From the sequence record NC_070872.1: a DNA stretch of 64,000 nucleotides; one strand, 5' to 3'. Of this stretch, positions 607 to 58,373 are shown one piece after another (within the stretch, counting starts at the first letter, position 1; every line of letters begins with the position of its first letter). The translations under genes were made by a program, and so were the position numbers. The notes beneath the pieces are model-generated. The model had not been told where the DNA came from and did no database searches. It worked only from the letters and a program-made list of their open reading frames with translations. The stretch comes from Escherichia phage U1G.

Positions 607-927
607 ATGGCGAGCATTGACTCACTGACCGTATGTAATACACGTCAGGCCCGTAACTTTATTATCCGTGCCCTGCAAGCAGGTAACGTACCGTTCCTGA
701 CTTCATCACCAGGCATGGGTAAATCTGCAATTATTCGTTCTGTTGCAGAAGAATTTGGTATGAAGCTGATAGACCATCGTCTGTCTACTTCTGCCCCAGA
801 AGACTTGTCAGGCCTACCATTCCGTAATGGTGACCATGCAGAGTTTATTCCTTTCGCTGATTTATTCCCTATTGAAGGGGATGAAATACCAGAAGGGTAT
901 AATGGTTGGCTCTTGTTCCTTAACTAA
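607..927 (+). CDS. MoxR-like AAA+ ATPase, N-terminal part (exon 1)
   Basis: Walker A SSPGMGKSA; ORF ends GWLLFLN-stop exactly where Walker B hhhhDE is expected; the DEFNSA continuation is found at 1804 in the downstream ORF. Confidence 0.6.
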   Translation: MASIDSLTVCNTRQARNFIIRALQAGNVPFLTSSPGMGKSAIIRSVAEEFGMKLIDHRLSTSAPEDLSGLPFRNGDHAEFIPFADLFPIEGDEIPEGYNGWLLFLN

Positions 928-1802
928 CGGGGCTTCATGAGAGTAATCTCATGTCGAAAGTTACCTAAACAGGGAACCTCTTCTAATCTGGTTGGCTCAG
1001 GTGTATACTTGAGTTTTAATCAATTGGAGACAATCCTGTGCTAAATAATGAAATTTGGAAAGATGTGCCCGACTTACCGTATGAAGTTTCCAACTTTGGC
1101 GTAGTACGCCGAAAAGAAGGAAAGTATAAATACAAAAATAGGACACACATAAAACCGTATCTTAATAACAAAGGGTACTACTGCGTGAACCTGTACATGA
1201 ATAGTAAAGTGTACAAATACCAAGTTCACCGTCTAGTAGGGTTAGCCTTTGTACCAAACCCTAATAACTATCCTATCGTTAATCATATAGATGGAAACCC
1301 TCTTAATAACCACGAGAGTAACCTGGAATGGTGTACCCAGTCTCACAACATGAAACATGCTTGGGATACTGGACTGCAATCAAACAGGCACGCTAATGCT
1401 AGTAATAAGAATCGTGGAGGCTCATCCAAATACGTAGGTGTATCCTGGAGTGAGCAAAGACAAAGATGGTGTGCCCATATAAGGGTTAACAAGAAATCTA
1501 TTGGTTTGGGGCGTTACAAAACAGAGGAAGAAGCTGCCAAAGCCTATGACTCCTATGTAACTAATAACAATCTTATACAGATTGGATACAGTACCAATTT
1601 CATTTAAACGCCAAACGACTATCGAAAACACGCAGCAATGCGGAAGTGAGTAGAGTAGGGTGCAAGCCAATGGCACTCGAAACGGTAACAGCCCTAGTAA
1701 TAGGGCTTTGATATAGTCTCCTCTGCATGGTGACATGCAGCAGTCAGTATTCACTGAGTGTACTGACGGCATTAGTAGTTGCGAACTAATGTGAAGATAA
1801 TG
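922..1802 (+). mobile_element. putative group I intron carrying an HNH endonuclease ORF, interrupting the ATPase gene
   Basis: Walker B split across the insertion; T at last 5' exon position (920) and G at 1802 fit group I splice rules and restore LLFL-DEFN in frame; structured-looking flanks; boundaries approximate. Confidence 0.4.
1038..1607 (+). CDS. HNH homing endonuclease with AP2 DNA-binding domain
   Basis: HNH_3-like NHIDGNPLNNHESNLEWCTQSHN and AP2-like YVGVSWSEQRQRWCAHIRVNKKSIGLGRYKTEEEAAKAYD; GTG start after GGAG. Confidence 0.7.
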   Translation: MLNNEIWKDVPDLPYEVSNFGVVRRKEGKYKYKNRTHIKPYLNNKGYYCVNLYMNSKVYKYQVHRLVGLAFVPNPNNYPIVNHIDGNPLNNHESNLEWCTQSHNMKHAWDTGLQSNRHANASNKNRGGSSKYVGVSWSEQRQRWCAHIRVNKKSIGLGRYKTEEEAAKAYDSYVTNNNLIQIGYSTNFI

Positions 1803-2541
1803 CGATGAGTTCAACTCAGCCAGAAAAGAAGTAGTAGCTGCTGCATATAAACTCATACTAGACCGTATGACTGGTCAGAAAAAACTTCATCCTAATGTGA
1901 TGATTATATGTGCTGGTAACAAAGCTACTGACCGAGCCATTGTTAACCCACTGGGTACTGCAATGCAGTCTCGTGTTGTCCACTTTGAAATGGAACTTAA
2001 CTTCGACATCTTTGTTGAAGACGTGATGATTCCATTTGAATGGGATGAGCGTCTGGTTGCATTCTTACATGCTAACCCGGGTTATCTGCATGACTTCGAC
2101 CCAGCACATAAGAACAAAACGTTCTGTTGTCCCCGTACCTGGGACTTTGTTAACAAAGACCTCAAGAACCGTCCTGAAGGTGCTCTACCTGACGAAGATT
2201 CTATCTACTACGCAGGGCACGTTACTGCTGGTAAGGCTACAGAGTTTGTTCAGTTTACACAGGTGTACAATCGTATGATTACGATTGAGAAGGTAGTCAA
2301 AGACCCTCTGGGCTGTGCACTACCGGAAGATAACAACCTGTGCTGGGCTACCGTTAACCATTTGGCTAATAAAACTACTGAAGAAAACTTCTCTGATGTT
2401 CTTCAGTACATTGAACGATTTAAAACGTTCACTCATAAGATTCTGTACTTCCGTACAGTAGGCAGAGCATTGCCAGAACTTCAGGCTACCCCTGAATGGC
2501 GTAAGGCTGCTTCCAATATCTCTCGTTACATTCACGGATAA
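1803..2541 (+). CDS. MoxR-like AAA+ ATPase, C-terminal part (exon 2)
   Basis: Frame open from 1801 reads DEFNSARKEVVAAAYKLILDRMTGQ...VMIICAGN (Walker B and sensor region); ORF track starts it at 1867. Confidence 0.6.
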
Positions 2542-2548
2542 TCACAAC

Positions 2549-3052
2549 ATGAACCAGATACCTCAGCACACACTTAGTGATGAACAACTCATGCGTGAGT
2601 ATGACCGTATTCAGGCGCAGGCATTTCTCGGACGTAGTGCAGCATTTTTTGGTTCATTACTGTGTAGTCTTAAGTTCTCATGGAAACGTGAAGACTGCCC
2701 CACTGCATGTACTGATGGAATAGAACTCCATTTCAACCCAGACTTCTTTATCTGGATGTGTCCAGATGCAAGAGAAACAGTGCTAATGCACGAACTCTGG
2801 CATGTGGCATATCTGCATGGCATCCGTCGTGGAAGCCGTGACCCAGAGGTCTGGAACCAGGCATGTGACCACTTCATTAATCTTCAGTTAGAAGAAGATG
2901 GATATAAGTTCACTGGTATCGACAAAGGCATTTGCAAAGACCCTCAATACAAAGGGTGGGTCGAAGAAGACATCTACGATGACCTGATGAAGAACCCTCA
3001 GAAAAGGCAGAAGCCGTCAGGGGTGCTGGAGCAGGTCTTGCTGGTGACATGA
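2549..3052 (+). CDS. VWA-partner protein, N-terminal metallopeptidase-like domain (HExxH, DUF2201-like)
   Basis: HELWH motif; directly downstream of the MoxR ATPase; probably one gene with 3049..3723 (frame break). Confidence 0.5.
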   Translation: MNQIPQHTLSDEQLMREYDRIQAQAFLGRSAAFFGSLLCSLKFSWKREDCPTACTDGIELHFNPDFFIWMCPDARETVLMHELWHVAYLHGIRRGSRDPEVWNQACDHFINLQLEEDGYKFTGIDKGICKDPQYKGWVEEDIYDDLMKNPQKRQKPSGVLEQVLLVT

Positions 3053-3723
3053 AATCTCCCACTTCGGGGCAGTCCCAGGGTGCTGTCGTCAACAACGTAG
3101 TACGAGCAATGCAGAGCCAGAAAATGGCTGGTGGACAGATGCCCGGTAAGGGTGCTGGTCGTATGGAAGAGGTTATTACCCAATTCCTTAAACCAGTGGT
3201 TCCATGGCAGGAAGTCCTCATGAACTTCTTTACCGACATTGACGATACTCATTATACGTGGGCCAGACCTAACCGTCGTTTTACTGACATCTATCTACCT
3301 TCCATGGAAGATGATGAAGGACGCTTACGACACTTAGCCTACTTTGAAGATGTATCTGGTTCTATTAGTAGTGCAGATTCTCTGCGATTTAACTCAGAGG
3401 TTGCCTACGTTAAGAGCCAGTTCAATCCTAAGAAGATGTCCCTAATTACCTTCGACGATATTATTCAAGAAGAGATAGACATCACTGAAGAAGATACTTT
3501 TGAAGAGATTAAGATTACTGGTCGTGGTGGTACAAACCTGGAACCAGTACGTGATTGGATTATTAAGAATAAGCCAACCGCTGCAATCATATTCTCTGAT
3601 ATGTATGTTCGTCCTATGGAAGAATTACCATTTGATATTCCTATCATCTGGTGTGTTCTGAATAATCCCAATGCTACCGTACCTTTTGGGGAGGTAGTTC
3701 ATATCCCTAAAGGAATGAAATAA
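3049..3723 (+). CDS. von Willebrand factor A (VWA) domain protein, C-terminal part
   Basis: VWA-like fold signature; -1 frame is open back to 2983 through a Gly/Ala linker, suggesting fusion with 2549..3052. Confidence 0.5.
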   Translation: MKSPTSGQSQGAVVNNVVRAMQSQKMAGGQMPGKGAGRMEEVITQFLKPVVPWQEVLMNFFTDIDDTHYTWARPNRRFTDIYLPSMEDDEGRLRHLAYFEDVSGSISSADSLRFNSEVAYVKSQFNPKKMSLITFDDIIQEEIDITEEDTFEEIKITGRGGTNLEPVRDWIIKNKPTAAIIFSDMYVRPMEELPFDIPIIWCVLNNPNATVPFGEVVHIPKGMK

Positions 3724-10070: not shown

Positions 10071-12131
10071 ATGAAAATCGAACTGATTTCTATCATCGCA
10101 CTGGCAGTTGACAGTCGAAACCTAACGTTGTGGAAGCCAGATGGCTCCACAATTGTGTATCCTCAGAGCGACCCACGGGTTGCTCGTATTGTATCTGAAG
10201 CACAAACCAAAGGCTTGGGAATTACCAAAGACCTGATAGAAGTAAACATTGCACCAGAAGTATCACTACGTACTGAGTATCTGGAAGCAGAGAAGAGCAC
10301 TAATGGATTTGTCCGTTTCTTCAAGGTCGCTAAAGCTAAACTCAAAGAGTTCTTTCAGGATGGTACAGGTGTTCCACCAGCTCGTATCGTTTCTGATATT
10401 AAGCTGGGCAATCCTACTAAGACATTAGTATCTAAAGCTATGGATACCTTCCTGGCTATACAGGCTAATGAACCAGAAGTAACAGTAACAGACGGTTGTT
10501 ATGACAGGCGTGACAATCTGATGTGGGTTACTGGCTGGGACAAAGACCATAACCATCCTGCACTGGTTCGCTTTATTAACGACGTAATGGGTTGGGGGTA
10601 TGAACATACCAACACCATGCTCAGACAGGAATGGCCTGTTGCAGTTCGTGCAGTATCCGATGATGAAATGGGTGAGTTTGCTAAACAAGCCAAGCACATC
10701 AAAGGTGTACATATTGTATTTACCAGCCGTAAACATACCCCACCGCCTTATATTGAAGTAGCTAAACCTACTAACCAGGATAAGCTGACTGCTGCTTCTG
10801 AGAAGCTAGCTGCATTGGGGGCTATTAGTACTGATGACGCTAACTTCCACACTGATGTGAAAGAAGATGAAGTGGTTGTTGCTGTTACCAACGATGGGGT
10901 TATCCCTGGAGTTGAGAACCTGCAACGTCACTTACGTCAGTCTGCCAAGTTGAAAGACTACAAGGGCTTCACTAAGTTCCTTGAGCGTCTGGCTCCGGTT
11001 ATTAAAGACCGTCTGCACTCAGTAGAAGACCTGATGAAGTTCATGGAAACTGCTGAATTGCCTATCGCTGATGATGGTTCAATCCTGTTCCTTAAACGCC
11101 TTCAGTATAAAGGGAAAGAAGATGGTAAACGTGTATTCGTTGACTGTCACTCAGGTAACATCAAACAGTGGGTAGGCTGTAAAGTGCAGGTACGGGAAGA
11201 CCTGGTAGATCCTGACCGTCGTCAGGACTGTTCTAACGGTCTGCATGTAGCATCCATGAGCTACATTCGTAGCTTCGGTGGTAACGTAACTGTCCTTGGT
11301 AAAGTAGCACCAGAAGATGTGTTTGCTGTTCCTCAGTACAGCACTAATAAAATGCGTGTATCTGCGTATCACATTATTGCTGAACTGCCTGAAGAGGAAC
11401 GTTGCAACGTTAATAGTGGTATCTATTTGTCTAAGACAGAAGTAGGTAAGAAGCTACTTAATGATGCCATAGTTGGGAACCATAGTTCACCTACCACACT
11501 TGTTATGGTTGGTGGTCATTATGGTACTAACCTCAAATACACTAATCTCACATCTGGTTCTATAGAACAATTCCGTATAGCTGCTAGTAAGGAAGCACTG
11601 AACATGGAAGAGTCGCTGAATGAAGCTGTAGCTGCTGAACCAGTGAAAGCTACTGACCTTAAACCTGTTATTAAGAAGGCTCCTACTGTGAAAGAACAAA
11701 TCCAGGAACTGGTTAAAGAGTTCCTAAATGCAACAACCCCAGAAGATAAGTTAGCTGCTGCTGACCTTCTGGTAGAACTGCGTTCCAAAGCTCGTAAGCC
11801 TTGGGCTGCATTTGATGTAGGTAGTGACGTGGTAGCTAAGATTGCTGATGTACGTGCTACCTATACAACTAAGCCTATTGGTAAACCTAAAGCTGTTAAG
11901 CAGGATATGACAGTTAAACCTACCCGTTCTGCTGCTGCCACTAAAGTAGCTCCATCTGGTAAACACGCTGATAATCTGCGTAGCATCCTGAACGATACGT
12001 CATATTCTGACTATCAGAAAGGCCATGCTCTGCAAGATTATAAGCGTCATGCTAAGAAGTCATTCACTGCAATGGGTCTGACTGAAGAAGAAGCTAAATT
12101 AGCTACCAAGCTGGTTAAAGCAGTTAAGTAA
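10071..12131 (+). CDS. rIIB: rIIB-like protein
   Basis: 686-aa ORF immediately after the rIIA-like gene; assignment by synteny and size only. Confidence 0.4.
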   Translation: MKIELISIIALAVDSRNLTLWKPDGSTIVYPQSDPRVARIVSEAQTKGLGITKDLIEVNIAPEVSLRTEYLEAEKSTNGFVRFFKVAKAKLKEFFQDGTGVPPARIVSDIKLGNPTKTLVSKAMDTFLAIQANEPEVTVTDGCYDRRDNLMWVTGWDKDHNHPALVRFINDVMGWGYEHTNTMLRQEWPVAVRAVSDDEMGEFAKQAKHIKGVHIVFTSRKHTPPPYIEVAKPTNQDKLTAASEKLAALGAISTDDANFHTDVKEDEVVVAVTNDGVIPGVENLQRHLRQSAKLKDYKGFTKFLERLAPVIKDRLHSVEDLMKFMETAELPIADDGSILFLKRLQYKGKEDGKRVFVDCHSGNIKQWVGCKVQVREDLVDPDRRQDCSNGLHVASMSYIRSFGGNVTVLGKVAPEDVFAVPQYSTNKMRVSAYHIIAELPEEERCNVNSGIYLSKTEVGKKLLNDAIVGNHSSPTTLVMVGGHYGTNLKYTNLTSGSIEQFRIAASKEALNMEESLNEAVAAEPVKATDLKPVIKKAPTVKEQIQELVKEFLNATTPEDKLAAADLLVELRSKARKPWAAFDVGSDVVAKIADVRATYTTKPIGKPKAVKQDMTVKPTRSAAATKVAPSGKHADNLRSILNDTSYSDYQKGHALQDYKRHAKKSFTAMGLTEEEAKLATKLVKAVK

Positions 12132-15352: not shown

Positions 15353-17167
15353 ATGCGTTACATCACCTCTCAGGATACTGGTAAGTATCCTATTGCTATC
15401 CTCGGTCATCAAATCCGAAGGGAGGAGATGATTAAAACCTATCTGCTGCCTTATGACCTAAGTATGGAAGACTTCATCTTTATTGAACTTCATTCTGCCC
15501 CCGGCAAGAAAACTCCTGCAAGAGAGATTAAGGAGTTCATACAGCAGGAACTGCAACAAGTACTGGATGATGCAGAGACTCAATACATTATCTGTACCGA
15601 TTCTGACTACTTCAAAATACTGACTAAAGAAGCTAAAGCAGAGGCTAACCTCGGCTATGTTTGTGACTCAGTATGGGGTAAGCAGAAGGTTATCTATGCA
15701 CCTAGCTACAGACAGGTCTTTTATGACCCTCCTGTAGTGAAATCCAAGATTGCTCAGGGTATGGATGCATTACTTAACCACATACGTGGGCAGTATGCTG
15801 AACCAGGTCAAGGAATCATTGAGTTTGAAGCCTATCCGGATACTCCCGAGAAGATTAAAGCCTGGCTAGACCAGTTGCTTGAGATGAATAAGCCATTGGC
15901 TATAGACATCGAAGCATTCGGTTTAAAGCACTATAACGCCGGTATAGGGACAATTACATTCTGTTGGAGTAAAACACAAGGCATAGCCTTTAACGTGGAC
16001 TACGAGCCGATTCCTGGAGCTACTGAAGCACCATACGGGCGTATCAACCGTAATGATATTGTTCGAAACCTTCTGCGTGAGTTCTTCATTAAGTACACCC
16101 AACGGCAGATGTATCACAACATTAGCTATGATGTGTACATACTTATCTATCAGTTATTCATGGATAATCTGATTGATACAGAGGGACTACTACATGGCAT
16201 GGACATCATGCTGCGTAATTGGGACTGTACTAAGTTAATCACCTATCTGGCTACTAACAGTTGTGCAGGCAATCATCTTAGTCTAAAAGAGCAGGCTCAG
16301 GAGTATGCTGGTAACTATGCTCAGGATGATATCAAAGACATACGTCTTATTCCTAATGAGCAACTGTTACGCTACAACCTCATTGATGGTTTGTGTACTT
16401 GGTACACATACGAGAAGCACTGGGATACTCTCATTGCCGATGACCAACTTGATGTTTACAACAGCATCTTTAAACCAGCCTGTGAAGACATTATTCAGAT
16501 GCAGTTAACCGGTATGCCCATGAATATGGAAACCGTTAACCAAGTAGCTGAAGAAATGGAAACTGACAGGAACCAGGCTCTGAAAACTATTCGTGAGTCT
16601 AACCTCATGAAGAACTTTACCCTGATGCTTCGTCAGGAATGGGTAGACGATAAGAATGCTAAGCTTAAGAAGAAGCAGGTAACACTAGCTGATTGTGACA
16701 TTGAGTTTAATCCTAACTCTGGCCCACAACTACAGAAGCTGTTATTTGACTATATCGGCTTACCGGTTCTTGGTCTTACTAAGAGCAAGCAACCTGCTAC
16801 TGACGGTGACACTATTAAAGCACTGCGTACACATACGCAGAGTGAAGATGTTAAGGAACTGCTCAATGCACTTATCGACTATAAGCTCGTGGATAAGATT
16901 ATCACTAGCTTTATACCAGCTTTCAGGAATGCCCAACCGGGACCAGATGGCTGGCACTACCTGTTCGGTAACCTCAATCTGGGAGGCACAGTCTCCGGTA
17001 GGTTATCGGCTTCAGAGCCAAATCTACAAACAATTCCATCCGGCTCTAAATATGCCAAGAAGATTAAGAAATGCTTCGAAGCTCCACCTAGTTGTTACTT
17101 GCCAAACAGGACCAAGCTGGATACATTAATCCAGTCCCTGAAAAATACAATTAGTGGTGCCAAATGA
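15353..17167 (+). CDS. family-A DNA polymerase, N-terminal part (3'-5' exonuclease and start of polymerase domain)
   Basis: Exo motif LAIDIEAFGL; polymerase segment GRLSASEPNLQTIP...KKCFEAPP stops just before motif A; functional exon probably ends near 17089. Confidence 0.7.
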   Translation: MRYITSQDTGKYPIAILGHQIRREEMIKTYLLPYDLSMEDFIFIELHSAPGKKTPAREIKEFIQQELQQVLDDAETQYIICTDSDYFKILTKEAKAEANLGYVCDSVWGKQKVIYAPSYRQVFYDPPVVKSKIAQGMDALLNHIRGQYAEPGQGIIEFEAYPDTPEKIKAWLDQLLEMNKPLAIDIEAFGLKHYNAGIGTITFCWSKTQGIAFNVDYEPIPGATEAPYGRINRNDIVRNLLREFFIKYTQRQMYHNISYDVYILIYQLFMDNLIDTEGLLHGMDIMLRNWDCTKLITYLATNSCAGNHLSLKEQAQEYAGNYAQDDIKDIRLIPNEQLLRYNLIDGLCTWYTYEKHWDTLIADDQLDVYNSIFKPACEDIIQMQLTGMPMNMETVNQVAEEMETDRNQALKTIRESNLMKNFTLMLRQEWVDDKNAKLKKKQVTLADCDIEFNPNSGPQLQKLLFDYIGLPVLGLTKSKQPATDGDTIKALRTHTQSEDVKELLNALIDYKLVDKIITSFIPAFRNAQPGPDGWHYLFGNLNLGGTVSGRLSASEPNLQTIPSGSKYAKKIKKCFEAPPSCYLPNRTKLDTLIQSLKNTISGAK

Positions 17168-17820
17168 TAGGAAAGAAATTTAATAGATTGACTGTAGTCA
17201 GGTTCAGTCACAAAGACAAATACTATGCAAAGCATTGGGAATGCCTTTGTGACTGTGGGAATACTACTATAGTCAACAATCAAAAATTAAAGAGTGGTCA
17301 TACAAGAAGTTGTGGATGTTTACACAAAGAATGCCTACGTAACTATAAAGATGGTCGTTCTAAGGAACTACTATATAAGGTTTACTACGGCATCCTTGAC
17401 CGCTGCCATAATGAAAAGTGTTCCACTTATTACAAATATGGGGCTAAGGGCATAAGTGTTTGCGATGAGTGGAAAAATTCATACGAAACTTTCCGAGATT
17501 GGGCATTATCTTCTGGTTATGCAGCAGGTCTTAGTATCGACAGGATTGATGCCTATAAAGGATATTCTCCAGACAACTGTAGATGGGCAAATAGAAGTAC
17601 CCAACAAACTAACAAAAGGGTTTGGAGTACAACTCCTTACGTTAGCTACAGTAAGTCAAAAAATAAATGGGTAGGTAGAATTACCCATTTGGGTAAGAGA
17701 ATAGAAATCCGGGTAGATAGAGATCTAGATACTGTTATGAATGCAGTTATTGCTTATGTATTAGCTAATAACTTGGTTGAACAGGAGAAGGTACTTCGTA
17801 ATGCAGGACTTATTAAATAA
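17164..17820 (+). CDS. putative homing endonuclease inserted in the DNA polymerase gene
   Basis: N-terminal GKKFNRLTVV and Cys/His cluster, AP2-like C-terminal segment; sits exactly between polymerase motif-A halves. Confidence 0.5.
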   Translation: MIGKKFNRLTVVRFSHKDKYYAKHWECLCDCGNTTIVNNQKLKSGHTRSCGCLHKECLRNYKDGRSKELLYKVYYGILDRCHNEKCSTYYKYGAKGISVCDEWKNSYETFRDWALSSGYAAGLSIDRIDAYKGYSPDNCRWANRSTQQTNKRVWSTTPYVSYSKSKNKWVGRITHLGKRIEIRVDRDLDTVMNAVIAYVLANNLVEQEKVLRNAGLIK

Positions 17821-18772
17821 ATTAGTTAGCATAAAGGATAGAGTAACCCTGGATGACTATGACGAGTTAATACAATTAGCTAGTAAATATGGCATGCAGG
17901 AACAAGTATCTGAATGCTTTGACTATGAGGGTGGATGGTTGTTTTGTGGGCTAGACTTTGCGTCCTTAGAGGATCGCATATCAGCCCTAACAACCAAAGA
18001 CCCTAATAAATTGCGTGTGTATACTGACGGGTTTGACGGTCATTCACTCAGAGCTAAATTTTATTTCGGTGAACAAATGCCGGATATTGATGACTCTGTA
18101 GAAAGCATCAACTCTATACAGAAAAAATATAAAGCCTTACGTAGCGAATCGAAAGCACCTACTTTCTTACTGACCTACGGCGGAACTTATATGGGCTTAA
18201 TGAAAAACTGTGGCTTCTCGGAAGAGAAGGCTAAATTAATTGAGTCCAGATACCACGAAATGTATACGGTTAGTGATGCCTGGGTTCAGGCTAAGCTAGA
18301 CGAAGCTGCTAAGACTGGTTATGTAACTGCTGCATTTGGTTTGAGAGTGCGTACTCCTTTACTGGCTCAGGTTTTACGTGGGACATGTAAGACCCCATAT
18401 GAAGCAGAAGCTGAAGGCAGGACTGCTGGTAATGCATTAGGTCAAAGCTGGTGTCTACTGAATAATCGTGCTGGCTCAGAGTTTATGCGTAAAGTCAGAA
18501 CCAGTGAGTTCAGATTAGATATACGTCCTTGTATTCACATTCATGATGCCCAATACTTCATGATTCGTGACAACATGGATACCTTGCAGTACACGAACAA
18601 GCACTTGGTTGAAGCCGTTAACTGGCAAGACCATCCTGATATTGCTCATCCAGAAGTTGGTTTGGGTGGGGAACTATCCTTGTTTTACCCAACGTGGGCT
18701 AACGAGATTGAAATTCCAAATCACGCTACCCCAGATGAAGTTCATCAAATAATTCAAAAGGCATTCGCATGA
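17777..18772 (+). CDS. family-A DNA polymerase, C-terminal part (motifs A, B, C)
   Basis: Motif A GGWLFCGLDFASLEDRI, motif B KAPTFLLTYGG, motif C HIHDAQ; real exon probably begins near 17900. Confidence 0.7.
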   Translation: MNRRRYFVMQDLLNKLVSIKDRVTLDDYDELIQLASKYGMQEQVSECFDYEGGWLFCGLDFASLEDRISALTTKDPNKLRVYTDGFDGHSLRAKFYFGEQMPDIDDSVESINSIQKKYKALRSESKAPTFLLTYGGTYMGLMKNCGFSEEKAKLIESRYHEMYTVSDAWVQAKLDEAAKTGYVTAAFGLRVRTPLLAQVLRGTCKTPYEAEAEGRTAGNALGQSWCLLNNRAGSEFMRKVRTSEFRLDIRPCIHIHDAQYFMIRDNMDTLQYTNKHLVEAVNWQDHPDIAHPEVGLGGELSLFYPTWANEIEIPNHATPDEVHQIIQKAFA

Positions 18773-52382: not shown

Positions 52383-52640
52383 AATATTACCGTAGTTGTA
52401 AAGTTAAGAACCCCTATGGGGTCGTATCATAAGATGACTCTTAGATAATACTTAGTATGCTGAAATACATCCAGACAAAGAGACGAGCAAAACCTGTGCT
52501 TTGTAGAAAGGGCATCATTGGATATATTCAATACCCTATGGGGGAGAGTTACCCTAACCATTTTTACAGTTAGAGCAATGGAATCAGCAAACACTAATGG
52601 GTTTGGTAGTGGGGTACTAAATTTACCCCACTACCTAAAT

Positions 52641-53174
52641 TTACTGCTTCAAGCCATATACAATAATATCTGCACCTAATGTAGTCCACGCTTCGTCACC
52701 ACGAGAACTTGCGCAGTTAACCGTAAACCCAGAAGGGGTTTGGTTAGTAACGCTAAATACAGGGGCAATACTCTGCAATGCACCAATACCCCCATTAAAG
52801 GTTACGGCTACACGATAATCCAGTAAGTTAATAGGTAGTGTTACTTCAGTACTACCAGCGGAACCAGTAGAGCGGGTGATAGATATACCCTTACGATAGA
52901 TGAATTGCCCATTACGCAAACCAGATAAAGTGGTGTTATCGGAGAGTGAGTCCACAATATCCCCAGCAACAATACCAATACCAGTTAAATCAGTATTAGT
53001 AATGATTCGTACACCACCTTCCTTGGTTCTTTCTAGTACCCTGGTTCCAGAAGCCAGACTGTATTTACCAGTTAATGTACTACGACAGGTAACGTTAGTA
53101 AGGTCAAAATAGTTATTAGAGCTGCTGGCATCATTAATAAGGTAAGAGAAGTTAACACATCGCACATTACTCAT
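52641..53174 (-). CDS. tail spike A, C-terminal part
   Basis: 177-aa ORF; frame is open upstream across the 53210 stop and joins ORF 53210..54010 after a one-base correction at 53220..53223. Confidence 0.5.
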   Translation of the reverse strand: MSNVRCVNFSYLINDASSSNNYFDLTNVTCRSTLTGKYSLASGTRVLERTKEGGVRIITNTDLTGIGIVAGDIVDSLSDNTTLSGLRNGQFIYRKGISITRSTGSAGSTEVTLPINLLDYRVAVTFNGGIGALQSIAPVFSVTNQTPSGFTVNCASSRGDEAWTTLGADIIVYGLKQ

Positions 53175-53209
53175 AGTAATTTGAGAATCTGAACCCTTAC
53201 TTGAAACAT

Positions 53210-54010
53210 CTACAAGATAGGGGTATTGGCTGTTTGGTATGGAGGGTAATTACCCGCATGATAATTAGAAATACCTAATGCAACCCTACCATCTATGTAG
53301 ATAGCAGAACCCGTTCCTGTATTTTCAGAACCACAATTATGCATACTAATGCTTCGGGTATCTGTAGTAGCGTTATCACCGGAACCACCGCCAAATACAT
53401 AACTCCAGCGGGTAGTATGGTCGCATGCACAATCAATAATTGAACTATAGCCACTAGCTAAGTAGTAACCACGATTAGCATAATCAACATAGCATTCTTT
53501 TATGTAGGTACTAGTACCGTCTTGGATATAGAACCCGGTATCCGTACAGTTACGAGCAATACACCGGGATATACGTTGAATCCATGAACCTTTATCAAAT
53601 ATACCAAACTTATAACCTTCAAAGAGGCAATCTGATACGTAACTGTTCTCCGTTATACTAAAATAGATACCGTAGTCAGCATTGACTGTAGTTGTAAAGC
53701 GAATACCTGAAATACGAGCATACTTACTCTGATTAGTATCTGTTAGTACAACAATAGCAGCATTTACGTTAACATCCACCCCGTAAGCATCTGGCTCAGT
53801 TATACCTGTCTTAGCTAAGGTAGTTAATTCAATAATTGCATTACCACCTTGTCCTTCAATTTCATAGTTATAAAAGCCTAAATTGCGATACAACAAGGGT
53901 TTAGTAATAATGTACTTCTTGGATGGAATCACCAACTTAGTTCGATTCAGTTGACAGTAATCCATTGCTGCTTGAATGGCTTCAGTATCATCAGTAACAC
54001 CATCCCCCAT
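53210..54010 (-). CDS. tail spike A, right-handed beta-helix (pectate-lyase-like) domain
   Basis: MGDGVTDDTEAIQAAMDYC motif typical of beta-helix tailspikes/depolymerases, repeated Gly/Asn-rich rungs. Confidence 0.6.
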   Translation of the reverse strand: MGDGVTDDTEAIQAAMDYCQLNRTKLVIPSKKYIITKPLLYRNLGFYNYEIEGQGGNAIIELTTLAKTGITEPDAYGVDVNVNAAIVVLTDTNQSKYARISGIRFTTTVNADYGIYFSITENSYVSDCLFEGYKFGIFDKGSWIQRISRCIARNCTDTGFYIQDGTSTYIKECYVDYANRGYYLASGYSSIIDCACDHTTRWSYVFGGGSGDNATTDTRSISMHNCGSENTGTGSAIYIDGRVALGISNYHAGNYPPYQTANTPIL

Positions 54011-54201
54011 AGCACCAAATACTTGCGGGGTAACATAGTGTATATACTTATTAAGTAGTTCCTCTTTCAGGTATGCGTCGGATATAGCAACCCAATTAGC
54101 ATCCCCAACAGGGGATGATCCAGGAGCTACAGTAACGGGTAGTGCACCCTGGTAGGTGTATCCAGTACCATTGTAAACGAGTATGTCATTCTTAGTATTT
54201 A

Positions 54202-54525
54202 CTATGGAACCGGTGGAGAACGTGCCAGGTAGGGTAGTATACTCCCCCTGCTTTTCCCAAGTTCCCCCAAATCAACAGTACCTGCTGAATGAACCAGGAT
54301 TGCTTGTTCATTCAGGCTTACAGCAGTGGTTCCTACCGGGAGTACGGGCAAAGAGTAAGCACGCTGAGTAGTCTTATCATAAATGACCTTGTATTCCCCT
54401 AAGTCTACACCTACAGCAAAGTAAACAACCTCATTCTGCTTAACTCCAAAGTGACGGGCTACTGCTTGTTTGTTGGTTAAGATTCCAGTGGAACCTTTAC
54501 CACCTTGTGAGAACATTTCGTTCAT
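54202..54525 (-). CDS. tail spike A, N-terminal part
   Basis: 107-aa ORF; one extra base at C5 run 54264..54268 joins it in frame with the beta-helix ORF (junction ...GTVDLGG TWEKQGEYTTLPG...AMGDGVTDD). Confidence 0.5.
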   Translation of the reverse strand: MNEMFSQGGKGSTGILTNKQAVARHFGVKQNEVVYFAVGVDLGEYKVIYDKTTQRAYSLPVLPVGTTAVSLNEQAILVHSAGTVDLGELGKSRGSILPYLARSPPVP

Positions 54526-54774
54526 ATAAACCTCTTTGTTTTTCTAAGTAAGCCCCTATTTGGAGGGGCTTGCAGTGGTAGTGACAACACTTTGAGTTAG
54601 TACGATAGTAACTAAAGACAAGATTAACCCTGCTACGATGTGTTTTCATCATTTTATCCCATGGCGATGACATGCACTTGCAGGACATAGTTTGTGTGAA
54701 TCGTAATGAAGTCCATGATGTCACATTTATAATTTCCCCGCCGAAGCGGGGTCTAGAAATACTGGTTTAGGATT

Positions 54775-56217
54775 TCACTTCCACCGCCCCTCCGCATGGT
54801 AGGCAGCAAACACCACAGTATCTGTTGCAGCCGCCGAGAGAGAGTGCCCTCTAACCCCGCCAATAGCCGTGTTGCTAATGCTGTCGATAGCAATCACACC
54901 ACGGCGGATATCAGTTGCCACGCCAGGAGTAACCTTGTATTGCAATGTGACAGTAGGTGGGGCAATAAACGTTGCCCCAAAAGTGATGGCTGGCCCAAGC
55001 GTTGTGTATGGGTCTGCAAATGTCCCCGCTCCAGATGCGATTCTACTGCCAAGGTTTTTGTCCCCATACGCCCGCATTGCCCCGGATGGTTCCTTAACCA
55101 CATACCCATCTCCTGCTGGGCCGCTGTATTCTGTCCCGCTAATGAGTGGCACGCCATCCGATGTATATGCCTTGGCCTTATTAGCAAATGTGCCAAAATC
55201 AATCGACGCATCAGAAACCTCGATCTCTGCACTCGGGGTGGTGAGGATACGGCTGGCGCCCTGGTTATTCAAAACCACACCAGCTGGCGCTCCCACGGAC
55301 AACTTACCATCGAGGTGAAACTCTCCGCCATTCCCAATAATCATGACCGGTCCTGGTAGCGATGAGAACTGCCTGAGGTCAAAGTCTAACTGCGCTGTTC
55401 TCTCCACCTCCAGTCTTACCTGTGATCCCAGTAGTGGTCGTGTGGAATCATAAACCGAGATGGAAATTGGCGCTGAAGCGGTAGGGGTGACGATCGGATA
55501 CGCACCATTTGAATTCTCGGTGATGAACTTCACCGTACCCTGGATCTTCACGTTGGCACTACCAATTATTAGTTGCCGCAGAGTGTTAGATCTGAAAACT
55601 GAATCCCGAAGTTTAACCCGAGCCCACCTGGCGTTTACGACCTCAAATGTACTGTGCAAGTCAGAATCAACAACGGTGATTGATGGCGTGTAGCGATCCA
55701 GCATCCCGGCAATACCGACGTTCTCGGTCAATACCAGCAATCCTGATCCCCCTATGCCGAAAGACTTGCACCCAATAACCCAGGAATCTATTCCGCGACC
55801 GCCGAATCCTGCTCCTGTTCCACCTTCAGCCTCACAGTCTAAAAATCGGATGTCGTATGCCGCATGGTGGGTGTCAAAATGGTCCGCCGTCGCACCATGC
55901 GATTTGCACCCGATAACCCGGCCACCCACTGTGTTTCCGCCAGAAAATGCCAACAGAGTATTCTCTGCGAGCGATACCCGCAGGGTGGTGTAGCTATGCC
56001 GGCATTTCCCGAACGTGCAGTTCTCTACGCGAGAGAAATAGCCGCCGTCACAAATTCCATAACCATTCTGCACCCCGGCTTCATTGTCAGAAAATTCCTG
56101 CATATTGCATTGGTTAATGTAAGCGTAGAGAGTTCCGTCCAGATAAATGCCAGAGCCGTAAGCGCGCGTCATATTCACACCCCGCACTACAGGCTTATGA
56201 TATGCCCTAATTGACAT
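54775..56217 (-). CDS. tail spike B, C-terminal module (GC-rich)
   Basis: 480-aa ORF of much higher GC than the rest of the window; upstream frame continues into ORF 56217..58373 after a one-base correction at T6 run 56278..56283. Confidence 0.55.
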   Translation of the reverse strand: MSIRAYHKPVVRGVNMTRAYGSGIYLDGTLYAYINQCNMQEFSDNEAGVQNGYGICDGGYFSRVENCTFGKCRHSYTTLRVSLAENTLLAFSGGNTVGGRVIGCKSHGATADHFDTHHAAYDIRFLDCEAEGGTGAGFGGRGIDSWVIGCKSFGIGGSGLLVLTENVGIAGMLDRYTPSITVVDSDLHSTFEVVNARWARVKLRDSVFRSNTLRQLIIGSANVKIQGTVKFITENSNGAYPIVTPTASAPISISVYDSTRPLLGSQVRLEVERTAQLDFDLRQFSSLPGPVMIIGNGGEFHLDGKLSVGAPAGVVLNNQGASRILTTPSAEIEVSDASIDFGTFANKAKAYTSDGVPLISGTEYSGPAGDGYVVKEPSGAMRAYGDKNLGSRIASGAGTFADPYTTLGPAITFGATFIAPPTVTLQYKVTPGVATDIRRGVIAIDSISNTAIGGVRGHSLSAAATDTVVFAAYHAEGRWK

Positions 56218-58373
56218 TACCGTTGGGCCATAAGTCTTCCCTTCCGGGTACTCGATGTTGCCGCCAACAAAACGGAATTTTTTGAAGTATCAACGAGCGC
56301 AACTCTGGCACCCCATGCAAGGCTGTACGGATTGACCACCGCAGTTTCTGCGTAATCCATCCCCTCAACGAACTGAAGCGGCTTATCCAATACCAGATTG
56401 GTAGTGGTGCTTCCAGCGCCGACGCGGGCATATTCCTGGATGCGGTATTTGTTGGAATTCCCAATCCTGGTGCGGTCTGCCGGATTCACTGCATTAGAAA
56501 TGATACGCACCCAATCACCGCGTTTCGGTGCGTTCGGCAGGTTGACTGCCAGATTTTTCGATCCAGCAACATAATCCGCAGTGAGCGGGTAGAGGGATGG
56601 GTTTGCATTACCTTCAGCAAAAAGCCAGGTATCGCCAGTATCAATAATATAATGCGCATTCCCGGCATCCCAATTCATATGCCCTGTAGTGGAAATCTGA
56701 GTTGTGAATTTGCGCGTAATTACATTTGGCTCATGGATTTTATTTTCCGGGCTTAAAGCCATCCAGTTCGCAGCCAACTGGGCGAACGGGGTTGTGTCAC
56801 TTGTACCATCTATCGGCGCACCCCAGTGGTCGAGGGTCGCCACGTGTGGAGGCTTAAAACCAAGAAGATCTGGAATGCTTGTCGCAGTGCTATCACGGAT
56901 GTATTCCAGTCCGCCTGCGATAACACTCATCCCATCGGCAATATTATTCCCTGGTGCGTAGCTGACTAATTCCGCCCGAGAGCCAAACCGAGCCAGTACA
57001 CCAACGCTCAACCAAGCTCCTACTCCAATACCACCAGTAGATGTAGGGGTTGATTTCTGTGAAACGGTATTCGCCAGCGCGCCATCCCAAATATAGCACT
57101 GCCCACCAGCGATATGCCAAACAGCATCAGTTGCACTGTTCACTGTGGCACCTTCTTCAAAGCTACCATCTACAAGTGTTAATCCCGCTTCCGCAAGACT
57201 ACGACGCCATAGTTCTCTGGTATTCTGCTGTTGGTAGGTATCTAGCAGAGTAACAGTAATATTCCCAGGAGAATAAGTTAATTGCCCATTTGAGACAGTG
57301 TTAATGTAAACATTGGCAGGTAGAGTAGGTAACCCATGTATACGTTGGGTAACTACATCGTAAAGTACCTTTTTACCATTAAGTACCTGAGTAGTGTCCG
57401 TGCTAAGAATTACCTCAGAATCTTTAACGTTAGTTGCACGAGCCACTACCTGAATAGTATGGTCTGCTATCTCAAGTACCTTAGCTTCCCCACCCAATTG
57501 AACAATTAAACGGTCATTCGTAGCCAAGGGTTCAGTAAGAATGATTCGATTGTTGTCTGAGTCAATCGTATAGGAGTTATTAGTTAACCCTTTATAGAAA
57601 CGTAAGCCATTCTTGTATACAGCAGGCACAGATCGGAAGGTATAAGGAATATCAATTACCTGTTCCCCACCTACAGCAGCACCCTGGTTGTACAACCAGT
57701 TAATAGTTACCCAATCAGAAACATTAGGATTATCAGGAGTTGCAGGAACACCTGTACGCATAACTACAACAAAGTCCCCTTGCTCCAAGGGAGTAGTAAA
57801 CTTAATCTCAAAGGTTAACGGGTCATACTCAAAATCGTAACCCTCAGTCTGCCAGTCACCATTAACAATCATGAATGGTACACCAGCCGTTTCATCCGGG
57901 ATACGAATGGTAGTCTCGCCACCAATGGCTGAACCAGAGTTATAAATCCACGGGATGTATCCACCATCACTAGAAGACTCACCACCACCGGATGAACCGG
58001 AAGTAGCTACTTTAATCCATGAACCCGTTGCAGTAGCATCATCTGGTAGGATGCCGGTACGGTCGCCCTCTACGTACAAGTAGTCAGTGACCTGACGGTC
58101 ACCAGCAGGGGTCTTGCCATAGATACGAGCAAAGGAAGCCTTAGTAGTTAACGCCTTAAGTTCTGCTTCTGATTGTACACCAAGTACCATTCCATACTGA
58201 TTCAGGAAGTCATAGATAAGTTTCAGGTTACCAAGGTTACAGTAAACAGTACGAACCACATGATAAGCATTACCTAGTAGTGCATCTACCATTGGGTCAT
58301 TGGAACTGTTTTGACAGTAAGGATTGGTCCAATCCTGATTTGCATCAAAGGGGGTATGTGCGTTCATCGCCAT
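56217..58373 (-). CDS. tail spike / tail fibre B, N-terminal anchor and central part
   Basis: 718-aa ORF; AT-rich N-terminal ~380 codons, GC-rich C-terminal ~340 codons. Confidence 0.6.
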   Translation of the reverse strand: MAMNAHTPFDANQDWTNPYCQNSSNDPMVDALLGNAYHVVRTVYCNLGNLKLIYDFLNQYGMVLGVQSEAELKALTTKASFARIYGKTPAGDRQVTDYLYVEGDRTGILPDDATATGSWIKVATSGSSGGGESSSDGGYIPWIYNSGSAIGGETTIRIPDETAGVPFMIVNGDWQTEGYDFEYDPLTFEIKFTTPLEQGDFVVVMRTGVPATPDNPNVSDWVTINWLYNQGAAVGGEQVIDIPYTFRSVPAVYKNGLRFYKGLTNNSYTIDSDNNRIILTEPLATNDRLIVQLGGEAKVLEIADHTIQVVARATNVKDSEVILSTDTTQVLNGKKVLYDVVTQRIHGLPTLPANVYINTVSNGQLTYSPGNITVTLLDTYQQQNTRELWRRSLAEAGLTLVDGSFEEGATVNSATDAVWHIAGGQCYIWDGALANTVSQKSTPTSTGGIGVGAWLSVGVLARFGSRAELVSYAPGNNIADGMSVIAGGLEYIRDSTATSIPDLLGFKPPHVATLDHWGAPIDGTSDTTPFAQLAANWMALSPENKIHEPNVITRKFTTQISTTGHMNWDAGNAHYIIDTGDTWLFAEGNANPSLYPLTADYVAGSKNLAVNLPNAPKRGDWVRIISNAVNPADRTRIGNSNKYRIQEYARVGAGSTTTNLVLDKPLQFVEGMDYAETAVVNPYSLAWGARVALVDTSKNSVLLAATSSTRKGRLMAQR

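Follow-up and report, generated by a model that had tools for sequence, protein, structure and literature searches.

A putative polysaccharide lyase module acquired by a gp66-type tailspike gene of Escherichia phage U1G, and a probable homopolymer error that splits the gene

The tailspike locus of Escherichia phage U1G raises two linked questions: whether it holds one gene or two, and whether the GC-rich stretch that fills most of it is native to the phage. The window analysed is the whole 64,000-nucleotide (nt) stretch of sequence record NC_070872.1, in which the locus lies on the minus strand; this U1G region is about 90% identical at the nt level to the G7C-like N4-like podoviruses (Gamaleyavirus, Schitoviridae). 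As deposited, the locus shows two minus-strand open reading frames (ORFs) in different frames, 56217..58373 (718 amino acids (aa), ORF1) and 54775..56217 (480 aa, ORF2), which overlap at TAATG. We propose, with a probability of roughly 80%, that both belong to a single gp66-type tailspike gene, about 1,199 codons long, that it carries an acquired lyase-type module, and that the frame break is an artefact. The comparison draws on two proteins, P0001, a metagenomic siphovirus-type tailspike of 889 aa (Logan SRR25169926), and P0002, a metagenomic siphovirus-type tailspike of 885 aa (ENA ERZ28535886), and on the metagenomic contigs L001 and L002, each with a spike gene. The features are as follows, numbered for the repaired gene in which one missing A is restored:

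57243..58373, minus strand: gp66-type N-terminal region (aa 1-377), with the virion anchor and the XD2/XD3 branching domains, assigned by identity to G7C gp66 and by phrog_12242.
57000..57242, minus strand: linker and Tail_spike_N (aa 378-458), the Pfam part (PF18668) being aa 402-458 at 57000-57170.
56999..57002, minus strand: 5' crossover, a GGTG microhomology in the Gly458 codon that closes Tail_spike_N, placed by multiple alignment and blastn end-points.
55135..56999, minus strand: acquired right-handed beta-helix catalytic domain, a predicted polysaccharide lyase (aa 459-1080), which begins in the last part of ORF1 and takes up most of ORF2.
56278..56283, minus strand: A6 homopolymer (T6 on the plus strand), one A short of the homologs in the L001 alignment, splitting ORF1 from ORF2.
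56217..56219, minus strand: premature TAA that ends ORF1 after 19 out-of-frame codons and overlaps the ATG of ORF2 (56215-56217), from the reading of the ORFs.
55795..56061, minus strand: predicted catalytic block from the family alignment, with Y772 at 56059-56061, R792/H793 at 55996-56001, H836 at 55867-55869 and R860 at 55795-55797, all in ORF2.
54778..55134, minus strand: C-terminal stretch of about 119 aa of the module (aa 1081-1199), with a predicted local distance difference test score (pLDDT) below 50 for P0001 residues 770-889.
54775..54777, minus strand: stop codon terminating the repaired gene; the stretch in common with L001 also finishes here, the alignment ending at 54775.
54736..54751, minus strand: 16-nt hairpin CCCCGCCGAAGCGGGG, in mRNA sense CCCCGC-UUCG-GCGGGG, unique in the window.
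54498..54752, minus strand: inter-spike spacer, with a second hairpin at about 54551-54572, from the UP17 alignment and a fold.

As sequenced, the locus contains no single continuous ORF of the 1,000-1,200 or so codons that characterise a gp66-type gene. The first-pass annotation had described one tail spike gene of about 1,180 codons; this holds for the homologs, where the gene is continuous, and for U1G after repair of a single A, but it overlooked the frame break at the A run that leaves two ORFs in the sequence as it stands. L001 reads TCAAAAAAATTCC (A7) where U1G has A6, the sole gap in a 2,229-nt alignment, and adding one A at 56278-56283 restores an ORF of 1,199 codons whose only stop is at the end. 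P0001 and P0002 run uninterrupted across the junction (...LVDTSKKFRFVGG...), as does P0004 (...LFDGSKKFRIVGG...), the residues at the junction being DTSKK-FRFVGG in the first two and DGSKK-FRIVGG in the third. An independent ORF2 coupled to ORF1 through TAATG was considered and rejected: its frame is open upstream of the ATG as far as the A6 run and reads beta-helix-like (...KKFRFVGGNIEYPEGKTYGPTV-MSIRAY...), and the supposed start Met is an internal, non-conserved residue in the homologs (M in P0001, L in P0002 and I in P0004).

It is very likely that the A7 run was read as A6, that is, that the break is a homopolymer under-call of an unpolished R9 Nanopore assembly. The U1G genome (MZ394712) was assembled with Canu v1.8 from MinION reads only, at 39x, and no short-read polishing is described (PMC10754912). 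Among 15 isolated one-base indels relative to G7C, 14 are bases missing from U1G, and eight lie in runs of at least three; the losses fall in gp25, gp36, gp44, gp45 (single-stranded DNA-binding protein, SSB), gp51 (virion protein), gp61 (endolysin) and gp62 (holin). Examples of such positions are 3025, 12947, 23546, 24029, 40631, 51731 and 52051, and the gp51 ORF is shortened to 571 aa with a TTG start. U1G was triple plaque-purified and grows to 10^13 plaque-forming units per mL (PMC10754912); since frameshifts in SSB, endolysin and holin would be intolerable for a high-titre phage, the deletion pattern points to a technical cause. It is consistent with an annotation affected by homopolymer errors across the whole U1G genome.

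Several points weigh against the proposed reading. The public U1G protein P0003 (716 aa), entered as 'tail spike protein', is identical to ORF1 at 100%, starting two codons later, and carries the same aberrant tail, ending ...DTSKNSVLLAATSSTRKGRLMAQR; the artefactual nature of the break is inferred rather than proven; and the donor lineage is represented by three or four metagenomic contigs only. In addition, OmpC is reported as the U1G receptor (PMC10754912), a finding that needs no depolymerase and excludes none.

If the one-base deletion were instead genuine, which we consider improbable, gp66 would be a 718-aa protein that has the anchor and the adaptor but runs only a third of the way into the beta-helix and lacks the catalytic centre; the depolymerase would be a decaying pseudogene, its remaining 480 aa either not expressed or not attached, and the phage would rely on other receptors. 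The break does stand in the deposited record (P0003), the second spike is broken twice as well, and U1G has been reported to depend on OmpC and to infect a very narrow range of hosts (PMC10754912); moreover, the spike genes carry three breaks in about 5.9 kb, about twice the background of about 0.26 per kb, although by a rough Poisson estimate this excess is not significant. Like deletions nevertheless occur in the essential SSB, endolysin, holin and gp51 genes of an assembly that is Nanopore-only at 39x, and the module is otherwise intact: it matches P0001 at 96% aa identity, has no further stop codon and retains every catalytic residue.

A considerably less probable account is that the break is real and that programmed -1 ribosomal frameshifting, or else slippage during transcription, at A_AAA_AAT yields both 718-aa and 1,199-aa spikes. 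An X_XXY_YYZ heptamer, A_AAA_AAT, is indeed present in the ORF1 frame, and a -1 shift on it lands in the ORF2 frame. The homologs, however, are in frame without any shift, the run itself varies (TCGAAGAAG in L002 and TCGAAAAAG in L004), the 88 nt downstream form no stable structure (minimum free energy -20.6 kcal/mol, z = -0.02 against shuffles), and the genome-wide homopolymer deletions are a simpler cause. The site thus offers neither the conserved two-frame arrangement nor the stimulatory structure of a -1 frameshift signal, and with a non-conserved run and an RNA fold no better than shuffles, programmed frameshifting is unsupported. The chances are equally slim that slippage at A_AAA_AAT supplies two spike forms, one of 718 aa that has only the anchor but can still dock the second spike, and a less abundant one of full length that bears the lyase. 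Were slippage true, the homopolymer would be a tunable switch for depolymerase display; in a milder variant, homopolymer tracts in both spike genes would be contingency loci by which spikes are turned off as the phage propagates.

For the single, repaired gene that we favour, base composition gives a first indication of where the foreign part lies. An abrupt GC change inside the tail spike gene had been noted at first pass, and sliding-window analysis bears it out: the profile is not uniform but reaches a plateau of 0.49-0.55 at about 54650-57200 between sides of about 0.38-0.45, 54775-57240 has 51.7% GC against 43.0% in the rest of the window, and this segment is the maximum among all 2,466-nt windows (mean 43.5%, standard deviation (sd) 1.9%). 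Fitted by likelihood with two change points, the island runs from 54740 to 57209, and the GC step is far beyond chance. The other 500-nt windows above 48% GC are only two short local peaks, 2751-3250 (0.498) and 25501-26000 (0.490). The phage-like composition claimed for the N-terminal 380 or so codons is likewise found, aa 1-377 having native values of 43.3% GC overall and 0.355 at third codon positions (GC3). A foreign start at about 57240, by comparison, proved to be about 240 nt too far upstream. Residues 378-458 (57242-57000; 49% GC) owe their GC richness to the first two codon positions alone (GC1 0.58, GC2 0.56), with a native-like GC3 of 0.346, which puts the foreign boundary at about 57002, where homology puts it too; in aa 459 and all that follow, GC3 rises to 0.516, which exceeds the value for 13 other phage genes (0.38 +/- 0.04) by more than 3 sd.

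Homology gives sharp boundaries. G7C-like relatives match U1G at about 84-91% nt identity as far as 56999-57394; the match then lapses entirely and returns only below 54556. The 5' homology ends at 57094 for G7C, 56999 for nithesis and 57394 for PGN829.1, and the spikes of the Phapecoctavirus phages UP17 and ukendt align only up to 56999. The gene therefore does not have N4-like homologs throughout, Gamaleyavirus homology stopping at 57394-56999. From 57002 to 54775 it is L001 that matches, at 94.8% nt identity over the 2,229-nt alignment. In the multiple alignment U1G follows nithesis/UP17 to ...GTTGGTG and L001 from GGTGT... on, and the blastn end-points meet at the same place, 56999 for nithesis, UP17 and ukendt against 57002 for L001. 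The L002 tailspike, which lies after a siphovirus tape-measure/GpJ block, is 68% nt identical to the module. These alignments support the view that 57002 to 54775 is a horizontally acquired, swapped receptor-binding/depolymerase module placed on a conserved anchor; the core of what had been suggested for the C-terminal part of the gene thus stands, on the homology gap, the L001 identity and the beta-helix fold described below. That the stretch is not foreign, its composition reflecting the Gly/Ala/Arg-rich content of a beta-helix evolved in place, describes aa 378-458 well enough (high GC1/GC2, GC3 0.346) but is refuted for 57002-54775 by the GC3 of aa 459 to the end, by the sharp end of homology to all Gamaleyavirus relatives and by the near-identity to the L001 gene in an unrelated context, and we give it the least weight of all.

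The part upstream of the crossover belongs to the phage backbone. The gene order is gp69, terminase gp68, gp67, gp66, hairpin and second spike; the 236-aa ORF upstream of gp66 matches the SU10_adaptor family and a 536-aa ORF aligns to the G7C terminase gp68, so that gp66 sits where a gene of its type belongs, between gp67 (adaptor)/gp68 and the second spike. Its N-terminal anchor is about 91% nt identical to G7C gp66 from 57094 upward, aa 3-440 match phrog_12242 'tail protein' (E 3.7e-291), and the anchor and XD2/XD3 are homologous to those of G7C gp66. The roles of XD2/XD3 in gp66 are taken from PMC8825819; according to the same paper, which cites Prokhorov et al. 2017, the N-terminal part of G7C gp66 attaches to the virion and XD3 docks the second spike, gp63.1. 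Tail_spike_N (PF18668) is recognised at aa 402-458 with 58.6 bits, above the gathering cut-off of 25, and this adaptor is 76-77% aa identical to those of the Phapecoctavirus and nithesis spikes. Residues 378-458 are the conserved upstream frame of the cassette and not foreign cargo.

Pfam and PHROG scans of the catalytic part of the acquired module gave no match above threshold, and what could be learned of it came from a family profile and a fold search. Structure prediction, proposed earlier as a check for beta-helix or enzymatic domains, yielded a beta-helix most like the K1 capsule lyases; in the fold search it is a right-handed parallel beta-helix most similar to 7W1C/9K4A. An exhaustive HMMER search with P0001 recovered proteins 28-43% identical to it in the catalytic region, and in a 33-sequence family alignment Y462, R482, H526 and R550 are invariant and H483, D524 and T525 nearly so (P0001 numbering), the H793 column being at least 90% conserved. 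Over this conserved block the family profile matches 9k4a (S2-4 of phage K64-1, a K1-specific depolymerase) at E 1.6e-13 and 7w1c (K1 lyase) at E 2.4e-8. Mutagenesis of the K1 lyase has assigned Tyr311 as the base, His373 as the acid and Arg397 as the carboxylate neutraliser, with Arg333/His334 adjacent (PMC8822698; the 7w1c chain index is offset by +20 from the residue numbers in that paper). In our alignment the Tyr of GYG falls on Tyr311 of WYG, a correspondence obtained through the 9k4a alignment only, CRH falls on Arg333/His334, the first His of FDTHH on His373 and the Arg of GFGGR on Arg397; the catalytic Tyr, His and Arg of a K1-like lyase are thus conserved as Y772, H836 and R860. To judge from this alignment, the probable activity of the module is beta-elimination, with a surface polysaccharide that contains uronic acid, either capsule or O-antigen, as the predicted substrate. 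The C-terminal stretch of about 119 aa has a weak phrog_2712 tail-fibre match (E 0.0013); it is common to P0001, P0002 and P0007 (matching to residue 889) and absent from P0004.

A search with the fused protein indicates where such a module may come from. P0001 (96% aa identity) and P0002 (73%) each match over 99% of the fused module, and P0004 matches at 46%. In the first two, the identity to U1G spans the whole catalytic and C-terminal module and ends at the same stop codon, but the N-terminal 150 or so residues form a different, siphovirus-type anchor, common to Klebsiella siphophage tail fibres and to gp13 of PDB 9occ. The P0002 gene lies directly after the tape-measure, DUF1833 and GpJ-like (central fibre) genes, and the tail genes beside it resemble those of temperate Klebsiella siphophages (about 67% nt). 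The spike gene of L001/L002 (about 50% GC) lies below its flanks (55-60%), the mirror image of the situation in U1G. Because the module has about 50-52% GC in all three carriers despite surroundings of 43% in U1G, 60% in the L001 flanks and 55% in the L002 flanks, it is a travelling cassette, native to none of the three contexts. We infer that it derives from a siphovirus or prophage-type tailspike pool, the direction of transfer included, and the 94.8% identity to L001 together with the unameliorated GC3 suggests a recent arrival in the U1G lineage. No relative of the module was found among gp66 alleles or about 50,700 isolated phage genomes, where tblastn with ORF2 also found none; blastn detected no relative of the island in complete E. 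coli genomes, and ORF2 peptide scans of the GTDB species representatives and IMG/VR gave no confirmed relative.

Just after the stop codon, at 54736-54751, lies the GC-rich hairpin, as noted at first pass. It is not the module's own, however: the identical 16-mer occurs in G7C at 63844-63859 and 61218-61233, annotated as 'repeat_region' after gp66 and gp63.1, and after the tailspike of the myovirus UP17, and in U1G the stretch that aligns with L001 stops short of it. Exact copies of the 16-mer occur in at least 120 diverse viral contigs of IMG/VR; the motif stands near a Tail_spike_N domain at two of 120 loci, and 54 of 70 copies have a T-tail in the UUCG-loop orientation (the count captured one motif orientation only). 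A dedicated recombination signal of spike cassettes was therefore rejected in favour of a generic terminator-type stem-loop that is part of the conserved locus frame. Some contigs hold two or three exact CCCCGCCGAAGCGGGG copies within about 1 kb (L056, IMGVR_UViG_3300036770_003780, 10360-11384; L077, 2125-2526), suggesting a repeated terminator or intergenic element there. The G7C copies are followed by UUUCUU or UUAUUUUU; in U1G the mRNA strand continues AAAUUAUAAA with no U-tract, which makes terminator activity of the U1G hairpin doubtful, and a terminator scan of the window, in which a stem followed by a U-tract marks a rho-independent terminator, did not call it. In G7C-like phages, which have four unrelated gp66 C-terminal alleles, the exchanges are bounded at this point by the terminator-like stem-loop, and its aiding recombination was offered as speculation (10.1101/542787); it may bound the exchanges passively. 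The spacer behind it is 94.5% nt identical, without gaps, to that of UP17, a Phapecoctavirus (rV5-like myovirus), the identity ending at the outer edge of the hairpin. Compared more widely, it is 94-96% nt identical to the post-tailspike spacers of UP17, TSP7_1, ukendt and ZCKP1, and G7C has only the 16-nt hairpin here.

We propose that the N-terminal part of gp66 would sit on the virion and, through XD3, dock the second spike as in G7C, with residues 378-458 as the Tail_spike_N adaptor common to many branched-spike phages. Residues 459-1199 would have been brought in by recombination from another phage lineage, with a crossover at GGTG and an end at the stop codon. The acquired beta-helix, modelled as a monomer, is presumably trimeric; Tyr would act as the base, His as the acid and Arg as the neutraliser, as in the Klebsiella K1 lyase. 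Binding and cleavage of the host capsule or O-antigen may then let the virion reach the outer membrane, and it is the module that would determine through which E. coli surface glycan the phage can pass. Exchange at the frame formed by Tail_spike_N and the stop codon/terminator could plausibly retarget the phage and leave its assembly interfaces untouched.

Other observations were made in the window. The second tailspike (52501-54545, minus strand) corresponds to a spike gene that in PGN829.1 is a single one of 628 aa (98.5% nt identity). In U1G it appears in three ORFs, 54202..54525, 53210..54010 and 52641..53174, broken by one-base homopolymer losses at 53224 (G5 to G4) and 54244 (C6 to C5) that resemble those elsewhere in the genome. 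The '107-aa tail spike' used as the U1G receptor-binding protein in a published machine-learning receptor prediction is an N-terminal fragment of this second spike. Elsewhere, the gp24 ATPase gene has an insertion of about 880 nt relative to G7C at 921-1804, which splits it into 607..927 and 1867..2541, and an ORF in the insert (1038..1607, plus strand) encodes a homing endonuclease with NUMOD4, HNH_3 and AP2 domains (Pfam); the arrangement may be intron-like or a split gene. The DNA polymerase gene gp39 has an insertion of about 840 nt relative to G7C at 17089-17932, which leaves the ORFs 15353..17167 and 17777..18772; the ORF in that insert (17164..17820, plus strand, 218 aa) has no Pfam match. 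A similar gp39 split is found in phage 10Gb (10.1101/542787).

U1G is a candidate therapeutic phage against carbapenem-resistant E. coli, and its published receptors were predicted from the 107-aa fragment. On the proposed reading it would encode two full-length enzymatic tailspikes, a gp66-type putative lyase of about 1,199 aa and a 628-aa spike of the PGN829.1 type, both masked by homopolymer errors. A polished genome and the repaired lyase would correct the host-range model and possibly add a depolymerase family without relatives in isolated phages.

In its catalytic part the module resembles the K1 lyase of Klebsiella phage NTUH-K2044-K1-1 (7W1C) and S2-4 of K64-1 (9K4A), with which it shares the block W/G-Y-G ... 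C-R-H ... F-D-T-H ... G-F-x-x-R, but overall identity is only 13-14%, and those spikes have other N-terminal anchors and another C-terminal region. The substrate is certainly different, the U1G host being E. coli U1007 and not Klebsiella K1, and the activity of the U1G module is a prediction. To CBA120 TSP1 and the Phapecoctavirus (rV5-like) tailspikes the locus is linked by the adaptor (76-77% aa) and by the downstream non-coding spacer (94-96% nt), although those proteins are spikes of myovirus baseplates whose N-terminus is short and of another type and whose catalytic domains are unrelated. The gp66/gp63.1 system of G7C shares the locus and gene order, the anchor (about 91%), an unrelated C-terminal moiety on a near-identical backbone and the same stem-loop. 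It differs in that its hairpin directly precedes the ribosome-binding site of the second spike, whereas in U1G a Phapecoctavirus-like spacer of about 250 nt follows, and in that gp66 of U1G is frame-broken in the deposited sequence. Swapping of gp66 C-terminal parts bounded by the stem-loop has already been published, and U1G is a further case; what it adds is a rare lyase-type module, an exact crossover point, and a deposited genome and published '107-aa RBP' (receptor-binding protein) distorted by homopolymer errors. The frame of Tail_spike_N and terminator hairpin, at which cassettes would be exchanged, is shared between this podovirus family and the rV5-like myoviruses at up to 96% nt identity (in the spacer), with cargo that may come from siphovirus or prophage spikes.

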